From an uncultured archaeon (GTDB lineage Archaea > Altiarchaeota > Altiarchaeia > IMC4 > QMZM01): a stretch of 31,854 nt of DNA. The position numbers and the translations under genes are program-made. The notes beneath the pieces are model-generated. The model did not search any database and was not told the DNA's origin. It worked only from the letters and a program-made list of their open reading frames with translations. Numbering within the stretch: the first letter of the stretch is position 1; the number at the start of each line of letters is the position of its first letter. The stretch lies in contig CAZJVE010000014.1 in NCBI GenBank assembly GCA_964549685.1, positions 1-31,854 on the forward strand. The letters are read 5' to 3'. Positions 2,645 to 19,898 of the stretch are shown here, piece after piece.

Positions 2645-4128
2645 TTGGAAACACCCCGGTGGATTATATCTGCCATCGTTATAATGCCTATGACTATGTT
2701 GTCCTCATCAACTACGGGCGTTGAACCGATGCTGTTCTTGTCGAGCCTCCTTGCGACCACGTCTATGGGCTCGTCCTTTCTTGAGGTTATCACTTTCTTT
2801 GTCATTATCTCGGAGAGCTTCTTCTCCCCCTTTGCCAGTGCCTTTGTTATGTCCCAGGTGGTTACTATGCCAACCAGTTTGTTGTCGGAGTCCACTATCG
2901 GGACCTGGTCTATGCCACTCGTAATCAGAATCTTGGATACCTCCTTCAGCGAATCCTTCTGATGGACTGTTTTCACAATCTGAGTCATGATATCGCCAAC
3001 GAACTTTGTCTCTTCCTTCACCTTCATGGGCCTGAATTCGGAATCTCCGGGAAGGTTCGTAATCGGCTTGGAGAGGAAGAATTCCTTGTCTTCAATCCAT
3101 TGCCCCAACGTTTCCATTATCCTGTGGGATACCTTCATGCTGGACTGGGAGCTTGTCCTCACCTTCTTGCCGTTGATGTCCACCTTGCCTGAGAAAAGCT
3201 CCTCGTAGCTTACCTCCTTCACGACGGGTCTCGTTCTCCTCGGAACTCCATAATCAAGGAGGTTGACGGTCAGGTCCTTGTTCCTGATTGCGGTGCTCTT
3301 TGCAACGTCCTCGTTCAGGATGGGAATGGGAATTCCAATCCCGACAAAGAGTGAGGTGCCGTAGTTGGGAATTGTGGCCCCGGCTATGAATTCAGGTGAC
3401 ATTTCCTTCATATCGCCCTGGACGAAGATTGTCCCAAACTGGGTCTTTGGCGAGTGCTGGGTTCCCTCGCTCGTCACATAGCCCTTGGCACCACAGAGGA
3501 ATATCCTGGTTCCAAGGCCAATGGTTTCGTAATTCGGGTCGTTGTTGAGCGGGCTTATCTCCCCTGTTCCGGAGAAATTCACGTTTCCGAAGTTAGGGAG
3601 CAGGGTACCCATATACGTCTGGAGTAGGGTGCCGGTGGAATTTATCGCTGCGTTGTATTTCTGGTAGCAGTTCCTGGGATTCAGGAGCCATGCCTGATTC
3701 ATATCATCCAGGGTTATTGCAGTCTCAACCTTCTTCCGGGGATAGCAGTCGGTCCGGTATGCGGTCGCTCTGAGATTTACCTCTTCGCCCTTCACCAGGT
3801 CTTCTATGACATGCCCTCCCCCATACTCGAAGCCCCTGTCCTCGCTCAGCTGTGTAGCTCCCAGGTAGGCGTCCACTGCCGCAAGGCCCGTATACGCCTC
3901 AACGTTATTGAGCCATATTCTCTGCATCTTTATAGGGGGGTCTGAATGCCCAAAATTCAGCAAAGCGCCGGAAGAGCACATTGCTCCAAAGGTTCCTGTT
4001 GTTACTATATCGACCTCTTTTGCAGCCCGCTTCGGATTTTCATCATAGATTTCCGGCATCTCATCTGCCCTTACGATTACTGCCTCGCCCTTCTTTATCT
4101 TCTCGTTAATCTCCTTGATGGTTTTCAT
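2641..4128 (-). CDS. L-aspartate semialdehyde sulfurtransferase (homocysteine biosynthesis; DUF39 + CBS pair, MA1821-like)
   Basis: KTIKEINEKI...VDIVTTGTFGAMCSSGA, YGGGHVIEDL, TDCYPR and NPRNCYQ motifs, plus C-terminal tandem CBS domains. Confidence 0.92.
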   Translation of the reverse strand: MKTIKEINEKIKKGEAVIVRADEMPEIYDENPKRAAKEVDIVTTGTFGAMCSSGALLNFGHSDPPIKMQRIWLNNVEAYTGLAAVDAYLGATQLSEDRGFEYGGGHVIEDLVKGEEVNLRATAYRTDCYPRKKVETAITLDDMNQAWLLNPRNCYQKYNAAINSTGTLLQTYMGTLLPNFGNVNFSGTGEISPLNNDPNYETIGLGTRIFLCGAKGYVTSEGTQHSPKTQFGTIFVQGDMKEMSPEFIAGATIPNYGTSLFVGIGIPIPILNEDVAKSTAIRNKDLTVNLLDYGVPRRTRPVVKEVSYEELFSGKVDINGKKVRTSSQSSMKVSHRIMETLGQWIEDKEFFLSKPITNLPGDSEFRPMKVKEETKFVGDIMTQIVKTVHQKDSLKEVSKILITSGIDQVPIVDSDNKLVGIVTTWDITKALAKGEKKLSEIMTKKVITSRKDEPIDVVARRLDKNSIGSTPVVDEDNIVIGIITMADIIHRGVSK

Positions 4129-10294: not shown

Positions 10295-11227
10295 ATGGAG
10301 CCTATTAGGGACATAGAGCTGAGTGGCAGCATTGACGAGCTTGCAAAGCAGCTCTACCAGAGTGGCGGCTTTACAGCAAAGAAATTCTCGCAGGGGGTTG
10401 ACATTCTTGAGAGAATTCTCAGGGAGGATTGTACAAGATTCCTTTCTTTTCCTGCATGCATAATATCCACCGGAACAAGGGGAGTCATCAGGGAGATGGT
10501 GAAGCGGAAGATGACCGACTGCATCATTACGACGTGCGGGACGCTGGACCATGATTTAGCGAGGGTCTGGAAGGACTACTATCAGGGAAGCTTCATGCTC
10601 GATGACAGGGAGCTGCACAAGAAGGGTTTGAACAGGCTGGGGAATATTCTGATTCCGAACGAATCATATGGAATAGTTCTTGAAGAGAAAATTCAACCAA
10701 TGATTGAGGATATTTATTCCAGTGAAAAGGAGATTTCACCTTATGAATTGATATGGAAAATTGGTGAGAATTTGAAGAGTGAAAAGAACAAAGAATCCTC
10801 GATAATCTACTGGGCATACAAGAACAAAATCCCTGTGTTTGTGCCCGGCATCTTCGATGGGGCTTTCGGGCACCAGCTCTGGATGTTCTGGCAGAACCAC
10901 AAGGACTTCAGGCTGAATCTGTTCGAGGACGAGCAGAAACTTGCCGATATTACATTCGATGCCAAGAAAACAGGAGCATTAATAATCGGTGGGGGCATAG
11001 CAAAACACCACACAATATGGTGGAACCAGTTTCAAGGCGGTTTAGAGTATGCAGTCTATATAACTACTGCACAGGAATTCGACGGCAGCCTCTCCGGGGC
11101 AAGGCCCAGAGAAGCGATATCCTGGGGCAAGCTCAAGGAGGACGCTAAATTCGTAACAGTTGATGGGGATGCGACCCTTATCCTGCCATTAATGATTTCT
11201 GCTTTACTTGAGAGATTGAGAAAATGA
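10295..11227 (+). CDS. dys: Deoxyhypusine synthase
   Basis: GLNRLGNILIPNESY, GGGIAKHH and DGSLSGARPREAISWGK (catalytic Lys). Confidence 0.96.
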   Translation: MEPIRDIELSGSIDELAKQLYQSGGFTAKKFSQGVDILERILREDCTRFLSFPACIISTGTRGVIREMVKRKMTDCIITTCGTLDHDLARVWKDYYQGSFMLDDRELHKKGLNRLGNILIPNESYGIVLEEKIQPMIEDIYSSEKEISPYELIWKIGENLKSEKNKESSIIYWAYKNKIPVFVPGIFDGAFGHQLWMFWQNHKDFRLNLFEDEQKLADITFDAKKTGALIIGGGIAKHHTIWWNQFQGGLEYAVYITTAQEFDGSLSGARPREAISWGKLKEDAKFVTVDGDATLILPLMISALLERLRK

Positions 11228-11239
11228 GTTAACTCCAGT

Positions 11240-12955
11240 CTAATGTTTATGATGCTGGGGGTGCTCGTGTCCCCTCTCCTTTCTGTTGCGTAAATATTTA
11301 ATGTGAGTGGCCCTCTCTTTTAAAAATTCATCAAGATTTAACTCATATTTTTCAATTAGCGTAGAGGAGTGATGTCCTCCTAAAAAGTGAGGCATAATGA
11401 CATAGGTTGCACCAGTACCATATAATTTTATAGCTTCATCTATCTGGTGGGAAACAACAATTATAACCGCTTCTTTATTGGAGTTTCTGATTTTATTAAT
11501 TAGGAAAAGATTTGTATCAAAGTCAGGTATCGTGGAGATCATCATCTTCACTTTTGCCAGATTTAATTCATTCAATAAGTCAACATCGCTCGCGTCACCA
11601 TATCTGCAATGCACTTCTTCTTTTGCCAAATCTATTACGATTTCTGGATTATAATCCACAACCAGAACTCCTTTCTTGGTTTTTTTGAATGATTCTAGTA
11701 AGTCGTAACCGATGCGGTCACATCCAAAAATGATAATATCATAGATTCCATCCTTATGATACTTATGTTCATCGACTTTTTTACCCTTTCTTTCAAACAC
11801 CCCCAGATACTTTGATATATGAGGGTATATCCTATTTGCATAAAGGATCATATAGGTAGAGCCAGCAATAGTTATTAAGCCAACAGCAGTTACAAAAGAT
11901 AAAATTTCATTGGTTAGATGTCCTATTTTGACCCCTAGGGCAATAAGAATCAAAGAGAACTCGCTTATTTGGGCTACGGTCAATCCTGCTAAAAAACCGT
12001 TTCTTCTGGTATAACCGAGCAAACCCATCAATATTATCACAATCAATGGGTTTCCGATTAATATGAATGCTGAAAATATTAGTATGTGAGTTATGTACTG
12101 ACTTATATCTGCAAAAACCATCTGAGCGCCCAACAATATAAAAAATAGGACAATAAAAAAATCGCGTAATGGTTTCATCTTTGAACTGATTTCATATCGG
12201 TACGGAGTCAATGATAAGGTAACGCCTGCCAATAGCGCTCCTATTTCCATTGAAAAGTTTATATAATGAAAGAGAGACGCTAATGCCAGACACCAGGAGA
12301 TTGAAAACAACAATAAAAATTCCTGTGATTTTGCAATGAATTTTGTTATTGTTGGAAGCACGTAAATGCCTGCCAGGAACAATAGCATTAACAAACCAAC
12401 TCCTTTAAAAATTGTTTCAAAAGCTAGAGTAGTAAAATTGAATTCTCCGACCGGGATTGACGAGACAATCATCAGAATGAGTACTGCAGCTAAATCCTGA
12501 ACAATTAAAAATCCGATAGCTATCTTACCATATAATGTTCCAGTATCTCCCTTATCTGATAGGAGCTTCATGATTATTATGGTGCTGCTGAATGTTAAGG
12601 CAATAGCGACATATAGAGAGGCTATCGCAGAAAAACCCAATAGTTTGCCTATGGAAAATCCGACGAGGGAGGTAAATATAATCTGACCAATTCCTGTAAT
12701 CAATGAAATTTTACCTACCTCCTTTATGACTTTAGGAGTTAAACCCAAACCAACTATAAAAAGAATTAACGCCACACCTATATGGGAGAGTATGGTTATT
12801 GTTTCTATTGAACGGACAATGTTAAGAAAGTAAGGGCCAAGTATTATGCCTGCAAAAATATAAGCAATTATTAGGGGTTGTTTTAATAATCGCATTATTC
12901 CTGCAAGTAGAGTAGTGATAACAATGATTATACCAATCTCTATAAACGGATCCAT
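11240..12955 (-). CDS. CPA2 cation:proton antiporter with C-terminal RCK/TrkA-N domain (Kef-type)
   Basis: About 12 TM segments with FSSTIII, LIVQD and QISEFS. RCK domain with VVDYNPE and YGDASD. GGGAGG SD upstream. DNA is markedly AT-rich. Confidence 0.92.
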   Translation of the reverse strand: MDPFIEIGIIIVITTLLAGIMRLLKQPLIIAYIFAGIILGPYFLNIVRSIETITILSHIGVALILFIVGLGLTPKVIKEVGKISLITGIGQIIFTSLVGFSIGKLLGFSAIASLYVAIALTFSSTIIIMKLLSDKGDTGTLYGKIAIGFLIVQDLAAVLILMIVSSIPVGEFNFTTLAFETIFKGVGLLMLLFLAGIYVLPTITKFIAKSQEFLLLFSISWCLALASLFHYINFSMEIGALLAGVTLSLTPYRYEISSKMKPLRDFFIVLFFILLGAQMVFADISQYITHILIFSAFILIGNPLIVIILMGLLGYTRRNGFLAGLTVAQISEFSLILIALGVKIGHLTNEILSFVTAVGLITIAGSTYMILYANRIYPHISKYLGVFERKGKKVDEHKYHKDGIYDIIIFGCDRIGYDLLESFKKTKKGVLVVDYNPEIVIDLAKEEVHCRYGDASDVDLLNELNLAKVKMMISTIPDFDTNLFLINKIRNSNKEAVIIVVSHQIDEAIKLYGTGATYVIMPHFLGGHHSSTLIEKYELNLDEFLKERATHIKYLRNRKERGHEHPQHHKH

Positions 12956-12990
12956 AGTTATATTCCTCCCTTTTATTTAATCTACTGTAT

Positions 12991-13010
12991 TTTAAATCTT
13001 GGGATTTAAA
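12991..13010. promoter_or_regulatory. Inverted repeat TTTAAATC-TTGG-GATTTAAA between divergent antiporter genes
   Basis: Perfect 8-bp inverted repeat whose arms are TATA-like. Confidence 0.4.
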
Positions 13011-14099: not shown

Positions 14100-14885
14100 A
14101 TGATTTATCTGAGAAAGTCGTTCGTGGAAAGCTGTCCGATAGAGGAAGCCGATGTCTGCCTGCTGGGAATTCCCTTCGACTCAACATCCATAAGCCACGG
14201 CAGCAGGTTCGGTCCCGCTGCTATCAGGGAGGCCCTGAAGGACGTGGAGGGCTATGATTCTGAAACAGGAGTGAGTCCGTTCGAGAAGCTGAGGATTGCA
14301 GACCTTGGAGATGTCGAGGTTGTTCCCGGTTCATATAAGCTGACGGCTGAGAGGATAGTGGATACTATGGGGTGGGTAAGGGAGCAGAACCCGGAGGCAT
14401 TTGTCCTGTCGCTTGGCGGGGAGCATCTCGTTTCCTTGCCTGTGATAGAAACCCTGAAACCAGAGACCGTTTTACAGTTCGATGCGCATGCAGACTTGCG
14501 GGAGGACTTCATCGGGAAGAAATACTCCCACGCCGACTGGGCGCACTACGTAGCAAAGGATTTTAATTTAGTTCAAAGAGGTATCAGAAGTTACTCTAAA
14601 GAGGAAAAAGATTCTGTGGATAAATTAAATAATAACAAAATCTCCGGCCCGACATACCTGACGGTCGACATGGACGTCTTCGACCCGGCCATCGCCCCGG
14701 AGACGGGGCTGCCTGAGCCATCAGGATGGAAATTCGATGATTTTATTGAAAATTTAAATTTATTGAAGGATAAGAATTTGATTGGGGCCGATATAGTGGA
14801 ATTTTCTCCAAAGGGATTCAATTCCCCCACGGCCTTCCTTGCAGCAAACGTCATCAAGAAGATTCTATCTATCCTTTCACCCTGA
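14100..14885 (+). CDS. speB: Agmatinase (ureohydrolase family)
   Basis: GIPFDST, GSRFGPAAIR, LGGEH, FDAHADL and VDMDVFDP-x-APETGLPEP metal-binding motifs. Confidence 0.88.
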   Translation: MIYLRKSFVESCPIEEADVCLLGIPFDSTSISHGSRFGPAAIREALKDVEGYDSETGVSPFEKLRIADLGDVEVVPGSYKLTAERIVDTMGWVREQNPEAFVLSLGGEHLVSLPVIETLKPETVLQFDAHADLREDFIGKKYSHADWAHYVAKDFNLVQRGIRSYSKEEKDSVDKLNNNKISGPTYLTVDMDVFDPAIAPETGLPEPSGWKFDDFIENLNLLKDKNLIGADIVEFSPKGFNSPTAFLAANVIKKILSILSP

Positions 14886-15318
14886 AAAAGAGCCAGTTCT
14901 TTGGTTCGTTCTTTAGCCGGATGAGTGCGAAGCTGCCTTTCATTTTGTTTCCATGGAGATTAAAAAGGAGCTTGTCTTCCTTCTCTTCCTCAAGGTCGTA
15001 GGTTCCGCTGTCCCATATCTCAACTGTTCCTGCCCCGTACTCTCCCTCGACTATTTCCCCCTTGAAGCCCGCATAGTCCAGGGGATGGTCCTCGGTCTGG
15101 ATAGCGAGCCTCTTGATTCCATCCTTCTGCGGCGGCTCCTTTGGAACGGCCCAGCTCTTCAGGATGCCATTCATCTCCAGCCTCAAATCGTAGTGGAGAT
15201 TCCTGGCCTGGTGCTTCTGGATTACGAAGACGTTGCCGTGCTCTGAACTTTTCTCTTCGCCTTTTGGTTCAGAGGTCTTCTCGAAATCCCTCTTCCGGTT
15301 GTATTCGTCGAGAGGCAT
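14869..15318 (-). CDS. Stand-alone LigD 3'-phosphoesterase (PE) domain protein
   Basis: EYNRKRDFEKTSEP, FVIQKHQARNLHYDLRLE, LKSWAVPK, RLAIQTEDHPLDY and YGAGTVEIWDSG. ATG at 15318. Confidence 0.93.
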   Translation of the reverse strand: MPLDEYNRKRDFEKTSEPKGEEKSSEHGNVFVIQKHQARNLHYDLRLEMNGILKSWAVPKEPPQKDGIKRLAIQTEDHPLDYAGFKGEIVEGEYGAGTVEIWDSGTYDLEEEKEDKLLFNLHGNKMKGSFALIRLKNEPKNWLFFRVKG

Positions 15319-15353
15319 GGTGATAATATAACGAATCACTCGGATATATAACC

Positions 15354-16187
15354 ATGGTAATGATAAGAAAGGCCAGCGGGGACATGGAGGAATTCAACCC
15401 GCAGAAGGTAGTTACGGCAATCATCCGCTCTGGAGGGACTCCCGACGTTGCTGACAATGTGATAAAGAAGCTGGAGAAGAAACTCTACAAGGGAATCTCG
15501 ACGAGGGAAATCTATAAGATTACGTTCAGGATTCTGGACAAGGAACAGCCGTCCCTGGCTTCCAGATACGACCTCAAGGGGGCAATAATGCGGCTGGGTC
15601 CTGCGGGATTCCCCTTCGAGACCTATCTGGCCGAGGTTCTTGCAGAGCACGATTATGATGTCAAACTGAGGCAGAACATCAAGGGTAAGTGTGTGGGGCA
15701 TGAGATAGACATCGTCCTCAACAGGGGCAATGAGCATACGATAGTCGAATGCAAGTACCATAACGAGTATGGAATCTATACGGGGCTGAAGGCCACCCTC
15801 TACACATATGCAAGGTTCCTCGACCTCGAGGAATGCGCCAAGGAGAGTAAATGTAAGAATTTCACAGGAGTATGGCTGGCAACCAATACCAAATTCTCGT
15901 TTGATGCGATACAGTATGCAAAATGCAGGGGGGTAAAGCTCCTTGGATGGAGATACCCCAAGGGGGAGGGGATAGAGAACCTGATAGAGTCAAAGGGACT
16001 TTATCCCATAACGATACTGCGCAAGGTTAACAGAAAATCCAAGGAAAAACTGTCTGATGCCAATATGATGCTCCTGAAGGACCTGACCGAGAAGAGTCCG
16101 GCAGAGATTTCATCAAGGACCGGGATAAAGGAGGGGAAGCTCAGGGACATCATCGATGAGGCGAGAGGGATTGTTGTTAAGGATTAG
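15354..16187 (+). CDS. ATP-cone domain plus Mrr-like PD-(D/E)xK endonuclease protein
   Basis: N-terminal IRKASGDMEEFNPQKV ATP cone; LGPAGFPFE, HEIDIV and VECKYHN nuclease motifs; C-terminal helical segment after GLYPITIL. Confidence 0.88.
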   Translation: MVMIRKASGDMEEFNPQKVVTAIIRSGGTPDVADNVIKKLEKKLYKGISTREIYKITFRILDKEQPSLASRYDLKGAIMRLGPAGFPFETYLAEVLAEHDYDVKLRQNIKGKCVGHEIDIVLNRGNEHTIVECKYHNEYGIYTGLKATLYTYARFLDLEECAKESKCKNFTGVWLATNTKFSFDAIQYAKCRGVKLLGWRYPKGEGIENLIESKGLYPITILRKVNRKSKEKLSDANMMLLKDLTEKSPAEISSRTGIKEGKLRDIIDEARGIVVKD

Positions 16188-16807
16188 AGCCGGGCTGAAG
16201 GGCACAGGTCGTTGAGAATGCATTCACTGCACCTGGGCCTTCTTGCTATGCATGTTTCCCTTCCGTGCATTATGAGAAGGTGGGAAAGATTCATCCAGTC
16301 CTTTTTCGGCGTGAGTTGCATCAGGTCCTGCTCTATCTTGACGGGGTCTTTGTTCTTTGTTAAGCCAAGCAGCCGTGATAGCCTCGTGACGTGTGTGTCG
16401 ACGGCGATGCCCTCGACTATTCCGTAGCCGGCCTGCAGGACGATGTTTGCCGTCTTTCTTGCCACTCCCGGGAGGGTGATTAATTCCTCCATTGTTTTAG
16501 GGACTCTGGAATTAAAATCTTCTACTAGAATTTTACAGCAATTTATTATATTCTTGGCCTTATTCCTGTAGAACCCAGTTGACCTAATATCCCGCTGGAA
16601 TTCCTCAGGGTCCGCGTGGGCATAGTCCTCCACTGTTTTGTATTTCTTGAAGAGTTCCTTCGTCACGAGGTTCACTCTCTTGTCCGTGCACTGGGCAGAG
16701 AGTATTGTTGCTATAAGAATCTCAAGCGGGTTTTTGTAACGGAGAGCCGTCCGGGGTTTGTATTTCTTTTTAAGGCGTTTTAGAATTCCCCCAACCTTCT
16801 GTTTCAT
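16184..16807 (-). CDS. nth: Endonuclease III
   Basis: LIATILSAQCTDKRVN, LPGVARKTANIV, AVDTHV and the FeS motif CIARRPRCSECILNDLCP. Confidence 0.97.
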   Translation of the reverse strand: MKQKVGGILKRLKKKYKPRTALRYKNPLEILIATILSAQCTDKRVNLVTKELFKKYKTVEDYAHADPEEFQRDIRSTGFYRNKAKNIINCCKILVEDFNSRVPKTMEELITLPGVARKTANIVLQAGYGIVEGIAVDTHVTRLSRLLGLTKNKDPVKIEQDLMQLTPKKDWMNLSHLLIMHGRETCIARRPRCSECILNDLCPSARL

Positions 16808-17844: not shown

Positions 17845-17926
17845 ATTAGATTATGGTGGATGAGCTTAATAAATCATAGAACTTGTCGCGACTGATACCT
17901 GATTTGCTCAAAATGTGCCCTGATTG

Positions 17927-17997
17927 CGTCATGAGTAAAAGCGAATAGTATTTAAAGAGTCATGACTAAATCATAATACAAATTTGGAGTCATGACT
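17927..17997. repeat. Array of palindromic boxes (AGTCATGACT x2 perfect, CGTCATGAGT x1) at 30-31 bp spacing around a TATA box
   Basis: Copies at 17927-17936, 17958-17967 and 17988-17997, with TATTTAAA at 17949-17956. A related TGTCGCGACT lies at 17884-17893. Confidence 0.75.
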
Positions 17998-18014
17998 AGT
18001 TGATAACAATCACG

Positions 18015-18485
18015 ATGAAAGCCCCAACCGCTCGCACAGACGCAAACTATCAGCAGGAATTCGAGGAGCTGACTGAAGATTTATCCAGTGCTATCGATGA
18101 TATGGGTGACCCTGTCGCGATTGGAACCATGCTCTACTCGATAGCGGAGGAGAAGAAGAGCAACAATCTCATCGTCAGGGACATAAACGCCAAGTTCGAC
18201 AATATAGCCGAGAAGCTGGACAAGATATACGGGAAGCTCTCGGTCCTTGCGGAGCATGGAGTCCCTCATCAAGTCGAAAATCCCTCAGTATCAATATCCG
18301 AAAGGGATGAAGAGATACTGGAATTCGTGAAATCAGAGGGTAAGGCCTGTGCCGATGACGTCCAGAGTAAATTTGAATACAAGGGTAGGAACGCTGCATC
18401 GGCAAGACTCAGCAGACTGTTCAAGGACAACCTGCTTGAGAAGGTCTACCATGGCAGGAAGGTCTACTACGTGGCCAAATCCTGA
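18015..18485 (+). CDS. Uncharacterised coiled-coil plus C-terminal winged-helix (LexA-DBD-like) DNA-binding protein
   Basis: Heptad segment VRDINAKFDNIAEKLDKIYGKLSVL. The C-terminus ISERDEEILEFVKSEG...FEYKGRNAASARLSRLFKDNLLEKVYHGRKVYY has a wHTH pattern. ATG 18015, or alternatively TTG 18000. Confidence 0.72.
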   Translation: MKAPTARTDANYQQEFEELTEDLSSAIDDMGDPVAIGTMLYSIAEEKKSNNLIVRDINAKFDNIAEKLDKIYGKLSVLAEHGVPHQVENPSVSISERDEEILEFVKSEGKACADDVQSKFEYKGRNAASARLSRLFKDNLLEKVYHGRKVYYVAKS

Positions 18486-18561: not shown

Positions 18562-18611
18562 TAATTCTCATTCTGAAGATGTTTTTTAATAGAGACAGCA
18601 TAAATTCTATT

Positions 18612-19898
18612 ATGCATGATTCAAAAGGCCAGAGTTCCACGGAGTATCTGATGAACTATGGCTGGCTTATAGTTTTAGTAGTAGTTATAGGTGTGTCTCT
18701 CTGGTATCTCGGGATATTCGACGTAGGGAGTGGTGTTGCTTCATACGAAGGATTCGCGAGGATTCAGCCGCTCGTGGAGAGCATCATCTTTACAACTGAT
18801 GGAGATTTTGCTGCGAAGTTTGTTAACGGGGCCGGAAACATGATAACTGTCAATAATATAACGGTAGTCAACCACGATGGGACGGAATGTTTTTGTACGA
18901 TAAACGGCACCAATATAATCAGGGCTGGGAAGGCATTCAACATGGGCGGCACGGCCTGTTCCAACACCAATCATAGCGAAGGACGCCCGTTCCTGATACA
19001 CCTGACCATAAACTATACAATGAGCATGCCGGGCATGGACGTGGAGAAGGTCGAAAACGGCACTATAAGGGGCGTATATGGTGGTGCTATTGGCGATGTA
19101 ATCCCCGCCGACACAGACATCCAGGGATGTCTCGGGGTAGGTGGCTACTGGTTAGGCAACCAGTACTGTGAAGGAGGGGATGACTGTGCGCAAAAGCCGA
19201 AGTGCTGTGGTGATGATCCAGCGGAGTATTACAAGAGCTCGTGGGACACGGTCTGTTGCGCGCAGGAGTCATCATGCGGCTCGTTCATGCCCTCGCACTA
19301 CTGCTGGAGCGAAGGGACCACGGGCACTACGGGGGGTCAGAGCAACATATACATATGCGACGAGGGTGATTGGCTCGAGTGTCCTTCAGCCGGAGAATGT
19401 AATATAGAGCAGAGCTACATATGCACGCAGCATTCAGGGACCTGGCTGTGGAGAGCGAGCCCGGCCAATGACGACCCGGACAGGTGCAGTGGGAATACCG
19501 ATGGATGGCACTACTGCAGCGTTGATACTGCACAGAATCGGAATTATTACTGTTCCGGTGAGTCGTGTACCTACAGCGTTGCAGGGTCAGATAACTGTGA
19601 CGGTTATGATGGATGGGTATGCAACGGTAACACAGATGAGTACCATGATTATTACTGTTCGGGGGGATCATGTCCGGATGACGTTACAGCTTCAGACGAC
19701 TGCTCTGACTGCAGCTGCAGCTGCGGCAATTATAACCAGGCAGAAGGAAGTTATTGCGCTGATGGCAAGGACAACGACTGTGATGGTTGCATTGATGGAA
19801 TTGACAGTAATTGTGGTGGGACAGAAGCAAACTGTTCTGATGGACTAGATAACGACTGTGATGGAGATATAGACGGTGCAGATAGTGATTGCCCATAG
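18612..19898 (+). CDS. Class III signal-peptide (type IV pilin-like) protein with a long Cys/Asp-rich extracellular tail
   Basis: KGQSSTEYLMNYGWLIVLVVVIGV prepilin motif and about 35 Cys. Two DGxDNDCDGxxDxxDxxC motifs at the C-terminus. ATG 18612 preferred, 18579 possible. Confidence 0.8.
   Translation: MHDSKGQSSTEYLMNYGWLIVLVVVIGVSLWYLGIFDVGSGVASYEGFARIQPLVESIIFTTDGDFAAKFVNGAGNMITVNNITVVNHDGTECFCTINGTNIIRAGKAFNMGGTACSNTNHSEGRPFLIHLTINYTMSMPGMDVEKVENGTIRGVYGGAIGDVIPADTDIQGCLGVGGYWLGNQYCEGGDDCAQKPKCCGDDPAEYYKSSWDTVCCAQESSCGSFMPSHYCWSEGTTGTTGGQSNIYICDEGDWLECPSAGECNIEQSYICTQHSGTWLWRASPANDDPDRCSGNTDGWHYCSVDTAQNRNYYCSGESCTYSVAGSDNCDGYDGWVCNGNTDEYHDYYCSGGSCPDDVTASDDCSDCSCSCGNYNQAEGSYCADGKDNDCDGCIDGIDSNCGGTEANCSDGLDNDCDGDIDGADSDCP

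Follow-up and report, generated by a model that had tools for sequence, protein, structure and literature searches.

The stretch of DNA analysed here, referred to below as the window, is contig CAZJVE010000014.1 (31,854 nucleotides) of GenBank assembly GCA_964549685.1, a 1,166,103-base genome of an uncultured member of the Altiarchaeota (G000 in our set) that is 85% complete. We examined a 156-residue open reading frame (ORF) on the plus strand, starting at 18015, together with the 170-bp spacer that separates it from the mscS gene on the minus strand (start 17844). The encoded protein probably belongs to a family of archaeal transcription factors with a winged helix and a coiled coil, whose members would act as dimers and repress their own promoter from a dyad lying between the TATA box and the transcription start. 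The boxes in the spacer most likely belong to the promoter of this downstream gene and form its predicted operator. A first-pass annotation, made by a model from the sequence of the window, had already tied the boxes to the winged-helix gene, and the association holds, as gene and site co-occur across three phyla with the site at a fixed distance from the TATA box.

All of the strings that the annotation had singled out (AGTCATGACT, GAGTCATGACTA, CGTCATGAGT, TGTCGCGACT and the TATA box TATTTAAA) are present where it placed them. The decamer AGTCATGACT occurs at 17958-17967 and 17988-17997, each copy within GAGTCATGACTA, and these are the only two exact copies in the whole assembly. Since chance alone would give about one copy, the non-random feature is not the copy number but the clustering within 30 bp. 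The annotation grouped these two copies with CGTCATGAGT and TGTCGCGACT as a phased array of four boxes. The two AGTCATGACT copies stand. CGTCATGAGT on its own is indistinguishable from chance, since matches to the decamer with up to two mismatches number 18 in the window against 13.3 ± 3.8 in shuffled sequence, with 19 of 100 shuffles reaching 18; its backing is positional, 10 of 29 Altiarchaeota-type promoters having an exact TCATGA 31 nt ahead of box 1. TGTCGCGACT (17884-17893), in which three positions differ, was dropped from the array because neither of the two closest relatives (loci L001 and L002) keeps it. TGTCGCGACT also adjoins the likely TATA box of mscS (TTTATTAA, minus strand, approximately 17866-17873), and of the three copies of GTCGCGAC in the genome the one at 17884-17893 is likewise not kept in L001 or L002.

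The list of boxes had also overlooked TCATAA at 17971-17976, 11 bp after box 1, and it is this degenerate box that proves to be the conserved partner. Boxes 1 and 2 together make up a 17-bp putative operator, TCATGA-N5-TCATRA (17960-17976; table 1). The 30-bp phasing described by the annotation is real, the boxes at −31, 0 and +30 lying about three helical turns apart, but it is not the core unit. The 30-bp units at 17957-17986 and 17987-18016 are identical at 19 of 30 positions, the first 12 included, and the second unit holds a further AGTCATGACT (box 1′) and a decayed box 2′, TTGATAA. Among the anchored promoters compared (see below), this duplication is seen only in the window, L001 and L002. 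We read it as having displaced the start codon to 33 nt past the predicted transcription start (approximately 17982); it also puts a second, half-decayed copy of the putative operator into the new leader. By this comparison, the 30-bp pair is a lineage-specific duplication, and the conserved, probably ancestral unit is the two boxes 11 bp apart. We take the purine-rich stretch directly 5′ of the TATA box to be a B recognition element (BRE) from the archaeal promoter consensus, and the predicted start, approximately 26 nt after the TATA box, agrees with the usual archaeal spacing.

To what extent the layout is shared was assessed at 80 homologue loci, the best 80 of 221 encoding stretches in a scan of species-representative genomes, which come from Altiarchaeota, Micrarchaeota or Bilamarchaeaceae, Iainarchaeum, or unclassified archaea. 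The annotation had staked its proposal in part on recurrence of the motif upstream of homologues. Strict TCATGA-N5-TCATRA is found within 500 nt upstream of the gene in 68 of the 80 loci, and in 78 when up to two substitutions are allowed; of the remaining two, one is preceded by no more than 60 nt of DNA and one has an altered box spacing. The rest of the same loci (409 kb, plus strand only) holds one strict and 27 loose matches. When 79 promoters (29 Altiarchaeota-type, 50 other) were anchored on the tandem box, a common layout emerged, namely a BRE-like CGA(A/T)AG, a TATA box, a gap of 3-5 nt and TCATGA-N5-TCATGA, with TCATAA as the second box in most Altiarchaeota. An AA(A/C)CGA(A/T)AG-like sequence occupies the BRE-like position of the window in most loci, and in 67 of the 79 promoters the end of an A/T 8-mer (7 of 8 in three loci) is separated from box 1 by 3-5 nt. 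Box 1 is TCATGA in all 29 Altiarchaeota-type promoters and in 46 of the 50 others; a box is present at +11 by a relaxed match in 26 of the 29 and as an exact TCATGA in 46 of the 50. The 11-bp spacing is constant throughout, while the flanking sequence has fully diverged.

In the Altiarchaeota-type promoters, exact TCATGA is found not only at offset −31, as noted above, but also at +20 (20 of 29). The first in-frame ATG lies at +22, within the +20 box, in 13 of the 29, and these genes are most likely leaderless because the ATG follows the TATA box by approximately 26 nt, the TATA-to-start distance of archaeal promoters. Sixteen gene-bearing Altiarchaeota genomes lack a strict site; in one the gene is cut by a contig end, and we inspected the other 15. 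Four of these, all from family f6, carry TCATGA-N5-TCATAT, one has a different box spacing, and all seven genomes of family f9 (L128-L131 and L135-L137) carry TCGTGA-N5-TCACGA after the TATA box. Thus f9 has lost the 6-bp palindromes and retained the 17-bp dyad, which is what a dimer with one half-site per subunit would require.

Several further elements accompany the tandem boxes in particular lineages. In f9, six of the seven genomes (all but G059) have a box of the TCATGA, TCGTGA or TCACGA type 31-33 nt past box 1, and in four of the six this later box holds the likely start codon; a conserved TTTTTAGTGTTTTATAAAACAT-like element is found approximately 70 nt upstream. An inverted repeat, GTTGCG-N9-CGCAAY, directly follows the tandem boxes, approximately 4-25 nt after box 2, in 14 of the 80 loci, all Micrarchaeota-type (L049, L060, L062, L065, L067-L069, L072, L074-L076 and L078-L080); it could be a second operator or a hairpin in the 5′ leader. 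A unit of about 40 nt (ATAATCATAAGATATTCATGAGATAAATCA...), present twice in the leader of the Altiarchaeota homologue L003 (approximately 2880-3000), carries extra TCATGA and TCATAA boxes; this is a second, independent expansion of the operator region.

Turning to the protein, the ATG at 18015 was preferred over the TTG at 18000 because the homologues have their initial M-K there. In an AlphaFold model based on 28 homologues, the mean predicted local distance difference test (pLDDT) score is 82, with the winged helix (residues 96-154) above 90 and a disordered linker at residues 81-95. Residues I57, F61, I64, L68, I71, L75 and L78 show a 4-3-4-3 spacing, that is, a hydrophobic period of 3.5 residues over the region 50-80, and we therefore accept as real the heptad coiled coil that the annotation had described. 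The family's most conserved part is the FEYKGRNAASARL segment, which the annotation had likened to LexA and which forms the turn and recognition helix. The recognition helix (residues 125-137, 18387-18425) contains an invariant N-A-A-S-A-R-L and the wing carries G-R-x-V-Y-Y; Y122, G124, N126-L132 and, in the wing, G147, V150 and Y152 are invariant in 28 of 28 aligned homologues. The pairing of this invariant helix with an invariant box supports autoregulation by the protein. A second conserved motif, DPVAI..MLY.IAEE.KS.NL..R.INAKFD, lies in the N-terminal domain, and a single cysteine, Cys112 in helix 2 of the winged helix, is nearly invariant among the aligned homologues. The N-terminal domain and Cys112 are candidate signal-related features. 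The N-terminal domain is more conserved than a plain coiled coil needs to be.

Searches of Pfam and NCBIfam with the 156-residue protein returned no model at its cut-off. The best Pfam match was Penicillinase_R (PF03965; E = 0.0032, 18.3 bits against a gathering threshold of 22.6), to residues 94-154 and covering only profile positions 1-64 of 115, and the ArsR-type NCBIfam model HTH_metalloreg matched the same residues with 19.5 bits against a cut-off of 55. Foldseek grouped the winged helix with ArsR/SmtB, MarR and MecI repressors (E = 7e-4 to 1e-2), and structural alignment with VIA-align gave Z-scores of 10.3 for CzrA, 10.3 for MecI, 10.2 for MexR and 10.0 for Phr. These are tied matches to generic winged helices, so the modelled fold does not discriminate between the ArsR/SmtB, MarR and MecI families; it does mark the protein as a predicted DNA binder. 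A sequence-profile search of the PDB yielded compositional coiled-coil matches (spike HR1, designed coiled coils) and a MarR chain (E = 0.012). In the ESM Atlas the whole protein matched its own unnamed clusters only, and residues 1-88 had no usable match among named clusters. Prediction of a two-copy complex with the homologue alignment gave a score of 0.02 (mark 0.42), which counts neither for nor against a dimer.

Several known families resemble the protein in part. ArsR/SmtB proteins (CzrA, HlyU, SqrR, CadC) are small dimeric repressors on dyad operators, often autoregulating, and share the winged-helix fold (Foldseek E = 7.4e-4 for HlyU and SqrR; CzrA aligned over 73 residues, root-mean-square deviation (rmsd) 2.5). 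However, HTH_metalloreg scores below its cut-off, there is no match to Pfam HTH_5 or HTH_20, and ArsR proteins dimerise via helices flanking the winged helix, whereas here a separate N-terminal coiled-coil hairpin is joined through a flexible linker. BlaI/MecI, the family behind the sub-threshold Penicillinase_R match, comprises dyad-binding autorepressors that combine a winged helix with a helical dimerisation domain, an architecture like that predicted here, but in the reverse order, with the winged helix N-terminal and the helical domain C-terminal. BlaI and MecI occur in bacteria, where their release depends on proteolysis through a BlaR1/MecR1 partner; no partner of this type is a conserved neighbour of the regulator gene in the homologue loci. 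Phr, the heat-shock regulator of Pyrococcus furiosus (PDB 2p4w), is an archaeal winged-helix repressor with a helical dimerisation part (70 residues aligned, rmsd 2.1) that represses its own gene from a site overlapping the start, downstream of the TATA box. It differs in its reversed domain order, its operator sequence and the lack of sequence similarity detectable in Pfam and PDB profile searches, and it is found in Thermococcales rather than in Altiarchaeota, Micrarchaeota and Iainarchaeota. Proteins of the MarR family act as dimers on dyads in the promoters of their own genes, which they repress, and their winged-helix fold matches (MexR over 64 residues, rmsd 1.3; the PDB chain mentioned above). 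Neither MarR nor MarR_2 is among the Pfam matches up to E = 10, a range in which the HMMER filters may drop very weak matches, and MarR dimerises via N- and C-terminal helices packed around the winged helix and not through a detached coiled coil.

In the mechanism that we infer, the protein would dimerise via its coiled coil, and each winged helix would read one TC(A/G)(T/C)GA half-site of the 17-bp dyad, a dyad operator being a fit for a dimer. The dyad begins 3 nt past the TATA box and would fill the space up to the transcription start, so that a bound dimer would keep RNA polymerase, and perhaps TFB, from being recruited. Auxiliary boxes, one 31 bp upstream and one overlapping the leaderless start codon in most relatives, may add cooperative binding or a roadblock; in the lineage of the window the duplicated operator 30 bp downstream, in the new 5′ leader, would be an additional element. 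For archaeal repressors such as MDR1, LrpA and Phr, the space from TATA box to start is the classic place to bind, and from there they block the recruitment of polymerase. The dyad of this gene occupies that location relative to the predicted start, and by analogy its position implies repression. We think it quite unlikely that the protein binds the boxes and instead activates its own promoter, or both activates and represses it, for example by recruiting TBP/TFB via box 0. Archaeal activators bind upstream of the BRE and TATA box, where box 0 lies, and box 0 is conserved in the 10 promoters noted above. It is nevertheless lineage-restricted, and the universally conserved boxes are the two past the TATA box, in space that the polymerase must occupy.

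The tandem site is found once in G000, at the regulator promoter. A position weight matrix (PWM) derived from the relatives scores 38.2 bits at 17960-17976, the next matches in the genome being the site's own duplicate at 17988 (15.0 bits) and a match at C6:46033 (14.5 bits), the best outside the promoter, which lies inside a coding region. Ten further genomes (0.7-1.8 Mb) each have the strict tandem site once at the regulator gene, one of them with a single stray match in addition, making 11 of the 11 genomes checked individually. Across 61 Altiarchaeota genomes there are 57 strict sites; 35 of them, spread over 34 of the 50 gene-bearing genomes, lie no more than 250 nt upstream of the gene, and the other 22 compare with approximately 20 expected by chance.

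These data bear on an alternative in which the boxes are bound by another factor, or are core-promoter or initiator elements specific to this gene, and the protein acts elsewhere without autoregulation. We consider this unlikely. The box at +20 could be start-codon context, and the genome offers no further sites from which the specificity of the protein might be defined independently. Against this, the site occurs once per genome and always at the regulator gene, in three phyla, which would require a one-gene regulon to have been conserved alongside a DNA-binding protein with an invariant recognition helix; general core-promoter elements, for their part, should recur at other genes, and the tandem site does not.

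A number of observations nevertheless weigh against autorepression. Intergenic DNA shows no excess of TCATGA, with 24 of the 384 copies lying there, a share equal to that of CCATGG; for single RTCATGAY boxes, 10 of 66 are intergenic, four of them at the regulator promoter or at a site on contig C11 described below. Box counts, the PWM scan of G000 and a search for N4-spaced palindromes in the 61 Altiarchaeota genomes revealed no second conserved target, and a transcription factor with its own promoter as its sole recognisable site is odd. The box overlapping the start codon may be translation-start context and not operator, and the boxes could be bound by a different factor. In the three genomes of family f8, no operator was found in the 340-390 nt inspected. 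Finally, the relatives are not independent of one another, and the counts given here overstate the number of separate observations.

The annotation had offered an iteron- or centromere-like site as its alternative. We regard a centromere-, iteron- or origin-like site with a cognate partition or replication protein as very improbable. The single site per genome would suit such a function, and the centromere-binding protein AspA appears in the fold list, at rank 16 among generic winged helices. The site, however, lies 3-5 nt past a TATA box, in register with the gene start, in the 67 promoters counted above, and no ParA-like or Orc-like partner is a conserved neighbour in the homologue loci. The origin and centromere readings are further weakened because the genome's only Cdc6/Orc1 match is on a different contig (C3) and the GC skew, which the annotation had suggested checking, shows no switch at the locus.

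The annotation also saw a resemblance to LexA and proposed a link to DNA damage through the neighbouring repair genes. LexA does bind DNA through a winged helix and represses its own gene at a dyad operator, and genes for a LigD 3′-phosphoesterase domain protein, a protein with ATP-cone, Mrr-like and AF1548-C domains, and endonuclease III are clustered nearby at 14869-16807. The resemblance itself is not supported: LexA_DNA_bind is absent from the Pfam matches up to E = 10, the structure searches match generic winged helices, and the DNA-binding domain of LexA is N-terminal, whereas the winged helix here is C-terminal. The annotation was right that the protein has no peptidase domain, there being no match to Pfam Peptidase_S24 up to E = 10, and the model of the 156-residue protein consists of helices and a two-strand wing. 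Nor does the genomic setting support a link to repair, as nth adjoins the regulator gene in only 1 of the 80 loci and mscS in 7; adjacency of the nucleic-acid gene cluster is kept only in the closest relative, and the nth and LigD genes have no box. A TCATGA-N4-TCATGA palindrome does adjoin an Lhr helicase gene elsewhere in the genome, but its spacing differs from that of the tandem site and its position next to Lhr is shared only within the genus. Of all the readings considered, a LexA-like damage repressor of nth and the LigD phosphoesterase gene is the one to which we give the least credence.

That palindrome, TCATGATTTATCATGA, has its boxes 10 bp apart and lies at G000:C11:22197-22212 (L087 2698-2713), in a 92-bp spacer between an 85-residue ORF, which has no Pfam family, and the Lhr-type helicase gene; immediately upstream is an XPD-like helicase. 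The arrangement is repeated in a genome of the same genus (G035). More widely, N4-spaced palindromes match in 9 of the 61 Altiarchaeota genomes, in unrelated contexts save for the same-genus copy. The 85-residue protein has one to five matches per genome in 20 of the 22 genomes of the family, and TYATGATAAATYATGA is found upstream of its paralogues in another genus. The site could be a second target or plain TATA-like DNA. The 85-residue ORF was considered as a relative of the regulator family and rejected (hhalign probability 2.9%).

The family is large. Clustered at 90% identity it has 617 clusters with E ≤ 1e-5, and at 50% identity there are 305 representative clusters; names among the 120 entries listed were 'hypothetical', '(predicted) HTH transcriptional regulator' or 'Uncharacterised protein', plus one stray 'RecN', and the close homologues are labelled Candidatus Altiarchaeales. 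The gene is present in 50 of 61 Altiarchaeota genomes (12 of the 13 of high quality), in 79 of 81 genomes of the phylum of a Micrarchaeota genome (78 of 80 without G094, which is flagged unpublished) and in 27 of 31 genomes of the phylum of an Iainarchaeum genome. In total, 156 of 173 sampled genomes from three phyla carry it, most with one copy. Many of these genomes are of 0.6-1.3 Mb and some are below 1 Mb, and single-copy retention in such genomes suggests a role that reduced organisms cannot lose. In family f8 (G006:C82, G008:C81 and G009:C48; L132-L134) the homologue lies within an ORF of 256-281 residues with a low-complexity, Ser/Asn/Lys-rich N-terminal extension, and one of the frames has a TAG inside it.

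Winged-helix autorepressors are well known as a kind of system. What is new here is a family without a curated model, with a domain order reversed relative to BlaI or Phr, present in near-universal single copy in three phyla and keeping its operator-promoter geometry across all of them. The novelty claimed by the annotation is borne out in that no curated family scores above its cut-off and our full-text literature searches found neither the family nor the motif described, although the supplementary tables of PMC8204110 (DPANN protein families) could include it as an unnamed family. The introduction of the same paper calls unresolved the question of whether Altiarchaeota belong with DPANN. An operator conserved across phyla together with its exact distance from the TATA box is unusual; it might serve as a shared derived character and could bear on that placement. 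The protein and its precisely defined putative DNA site offer a pair that can be tested jointly, with the natural variants TCATGA and TCGTGA/TCACGA as ready-made specificity controls. To our knowledge, hardly anything has been learned about how Altiarchaeota and DPANN archaea regulate their genes, because most of them cannot be cultured.

More speculatively, the regulator's own promoter might be its sole high-affinity site, its real output passing through the conserved N-terminal coiled coil, in an ancient and near-essential system with a single origin, in the common ancestor of Altiarchaeota, Micrarchaeota and Iainarchaeota. We hold this extended proposal to be doubtful. In such a scheme the N-terminal domain would titrate or deliver a partner protein, or sense a cellular state. 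If true, the system would be a homeostat of a new type, kept with its operator even in the smallest of these genomes, and the gene and operator pair would be a rare genomic character joining Altiarchaeota to these DPANN lineages.

Table 1. Promoter elements and protein regions at the regulator locus, in window coordinates.
Feature	Position	Strand	Basis or remark
Box 0, CGTCATGAGT (TCATGA core 17929-17934)	17927-17936		Just 5′ of the BRE-like stretch, 31 bp before box 1
Purine-rich BRE-like stretch, AGCGAATAG	17940-17948	+	Directly 5′ of the TATA box
TATA box, TATTTAAA	17949-17956	+	Sequence; position kept in relatives
Box 1, AGTCATGACT (TCATGA core 17960-17965)	17958-17967		Sequence and conservation
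Box 2, TCATAA, degenerate partner 11 bp after box 1	17971-17976		Conservation and PWM
Predicted transcription start	17982	+	Aligns with the first base of the leaderless ATG (offset +22) of 13 among 29 Altiarchaeota-type relatives
Second copy of the 30-bp unit, in the predicted 5′ untranslated region	17987-18016	+	First copy at 17957-17986
Coding sequence, 156 residues and stop	18015-18485	+	ATG at 18015 chosen over TTG at 18000
N-terminal helical hairpin, residues 1-80 (helices 7-29 and 33-80)	18015-18254	+	Heptad coiled coil at approximately 50-80
Flexible linker, residues 81-95	18255-18299	+	pLDDT <50 at 82-90; length varies among homologues (gapped columns)
Winged helix-turn-helix, residues 96-156	18300-18482	+	Homologue alignment, model and fold searches

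The only wide synteny of the regulator gene is with a convergent ftsY-pfdA-rpiA cluster, ftsY being present in 19 of the 80 loci. A neighbour analysis also picked out a divergent protein of approximately 150-200 residues in 22 of 52 loci from outside the Altiarchaeota; it matches no Pfam family above cut-off and nothing in G000. The window's 11001-13000 segment has a GC content of 0.37, compared with approximately 0.49 in the remainder. Downstream of the regulator, at 18579-19898 (plus strand), lies the gene for a 439-residue protein that has no Pfam family; its signal sequence is archaeal pilin-like (class III), its C-terminal half is rich in Cys and Asp, and its gene sits between the regulator and ftsY only in the window and L001.

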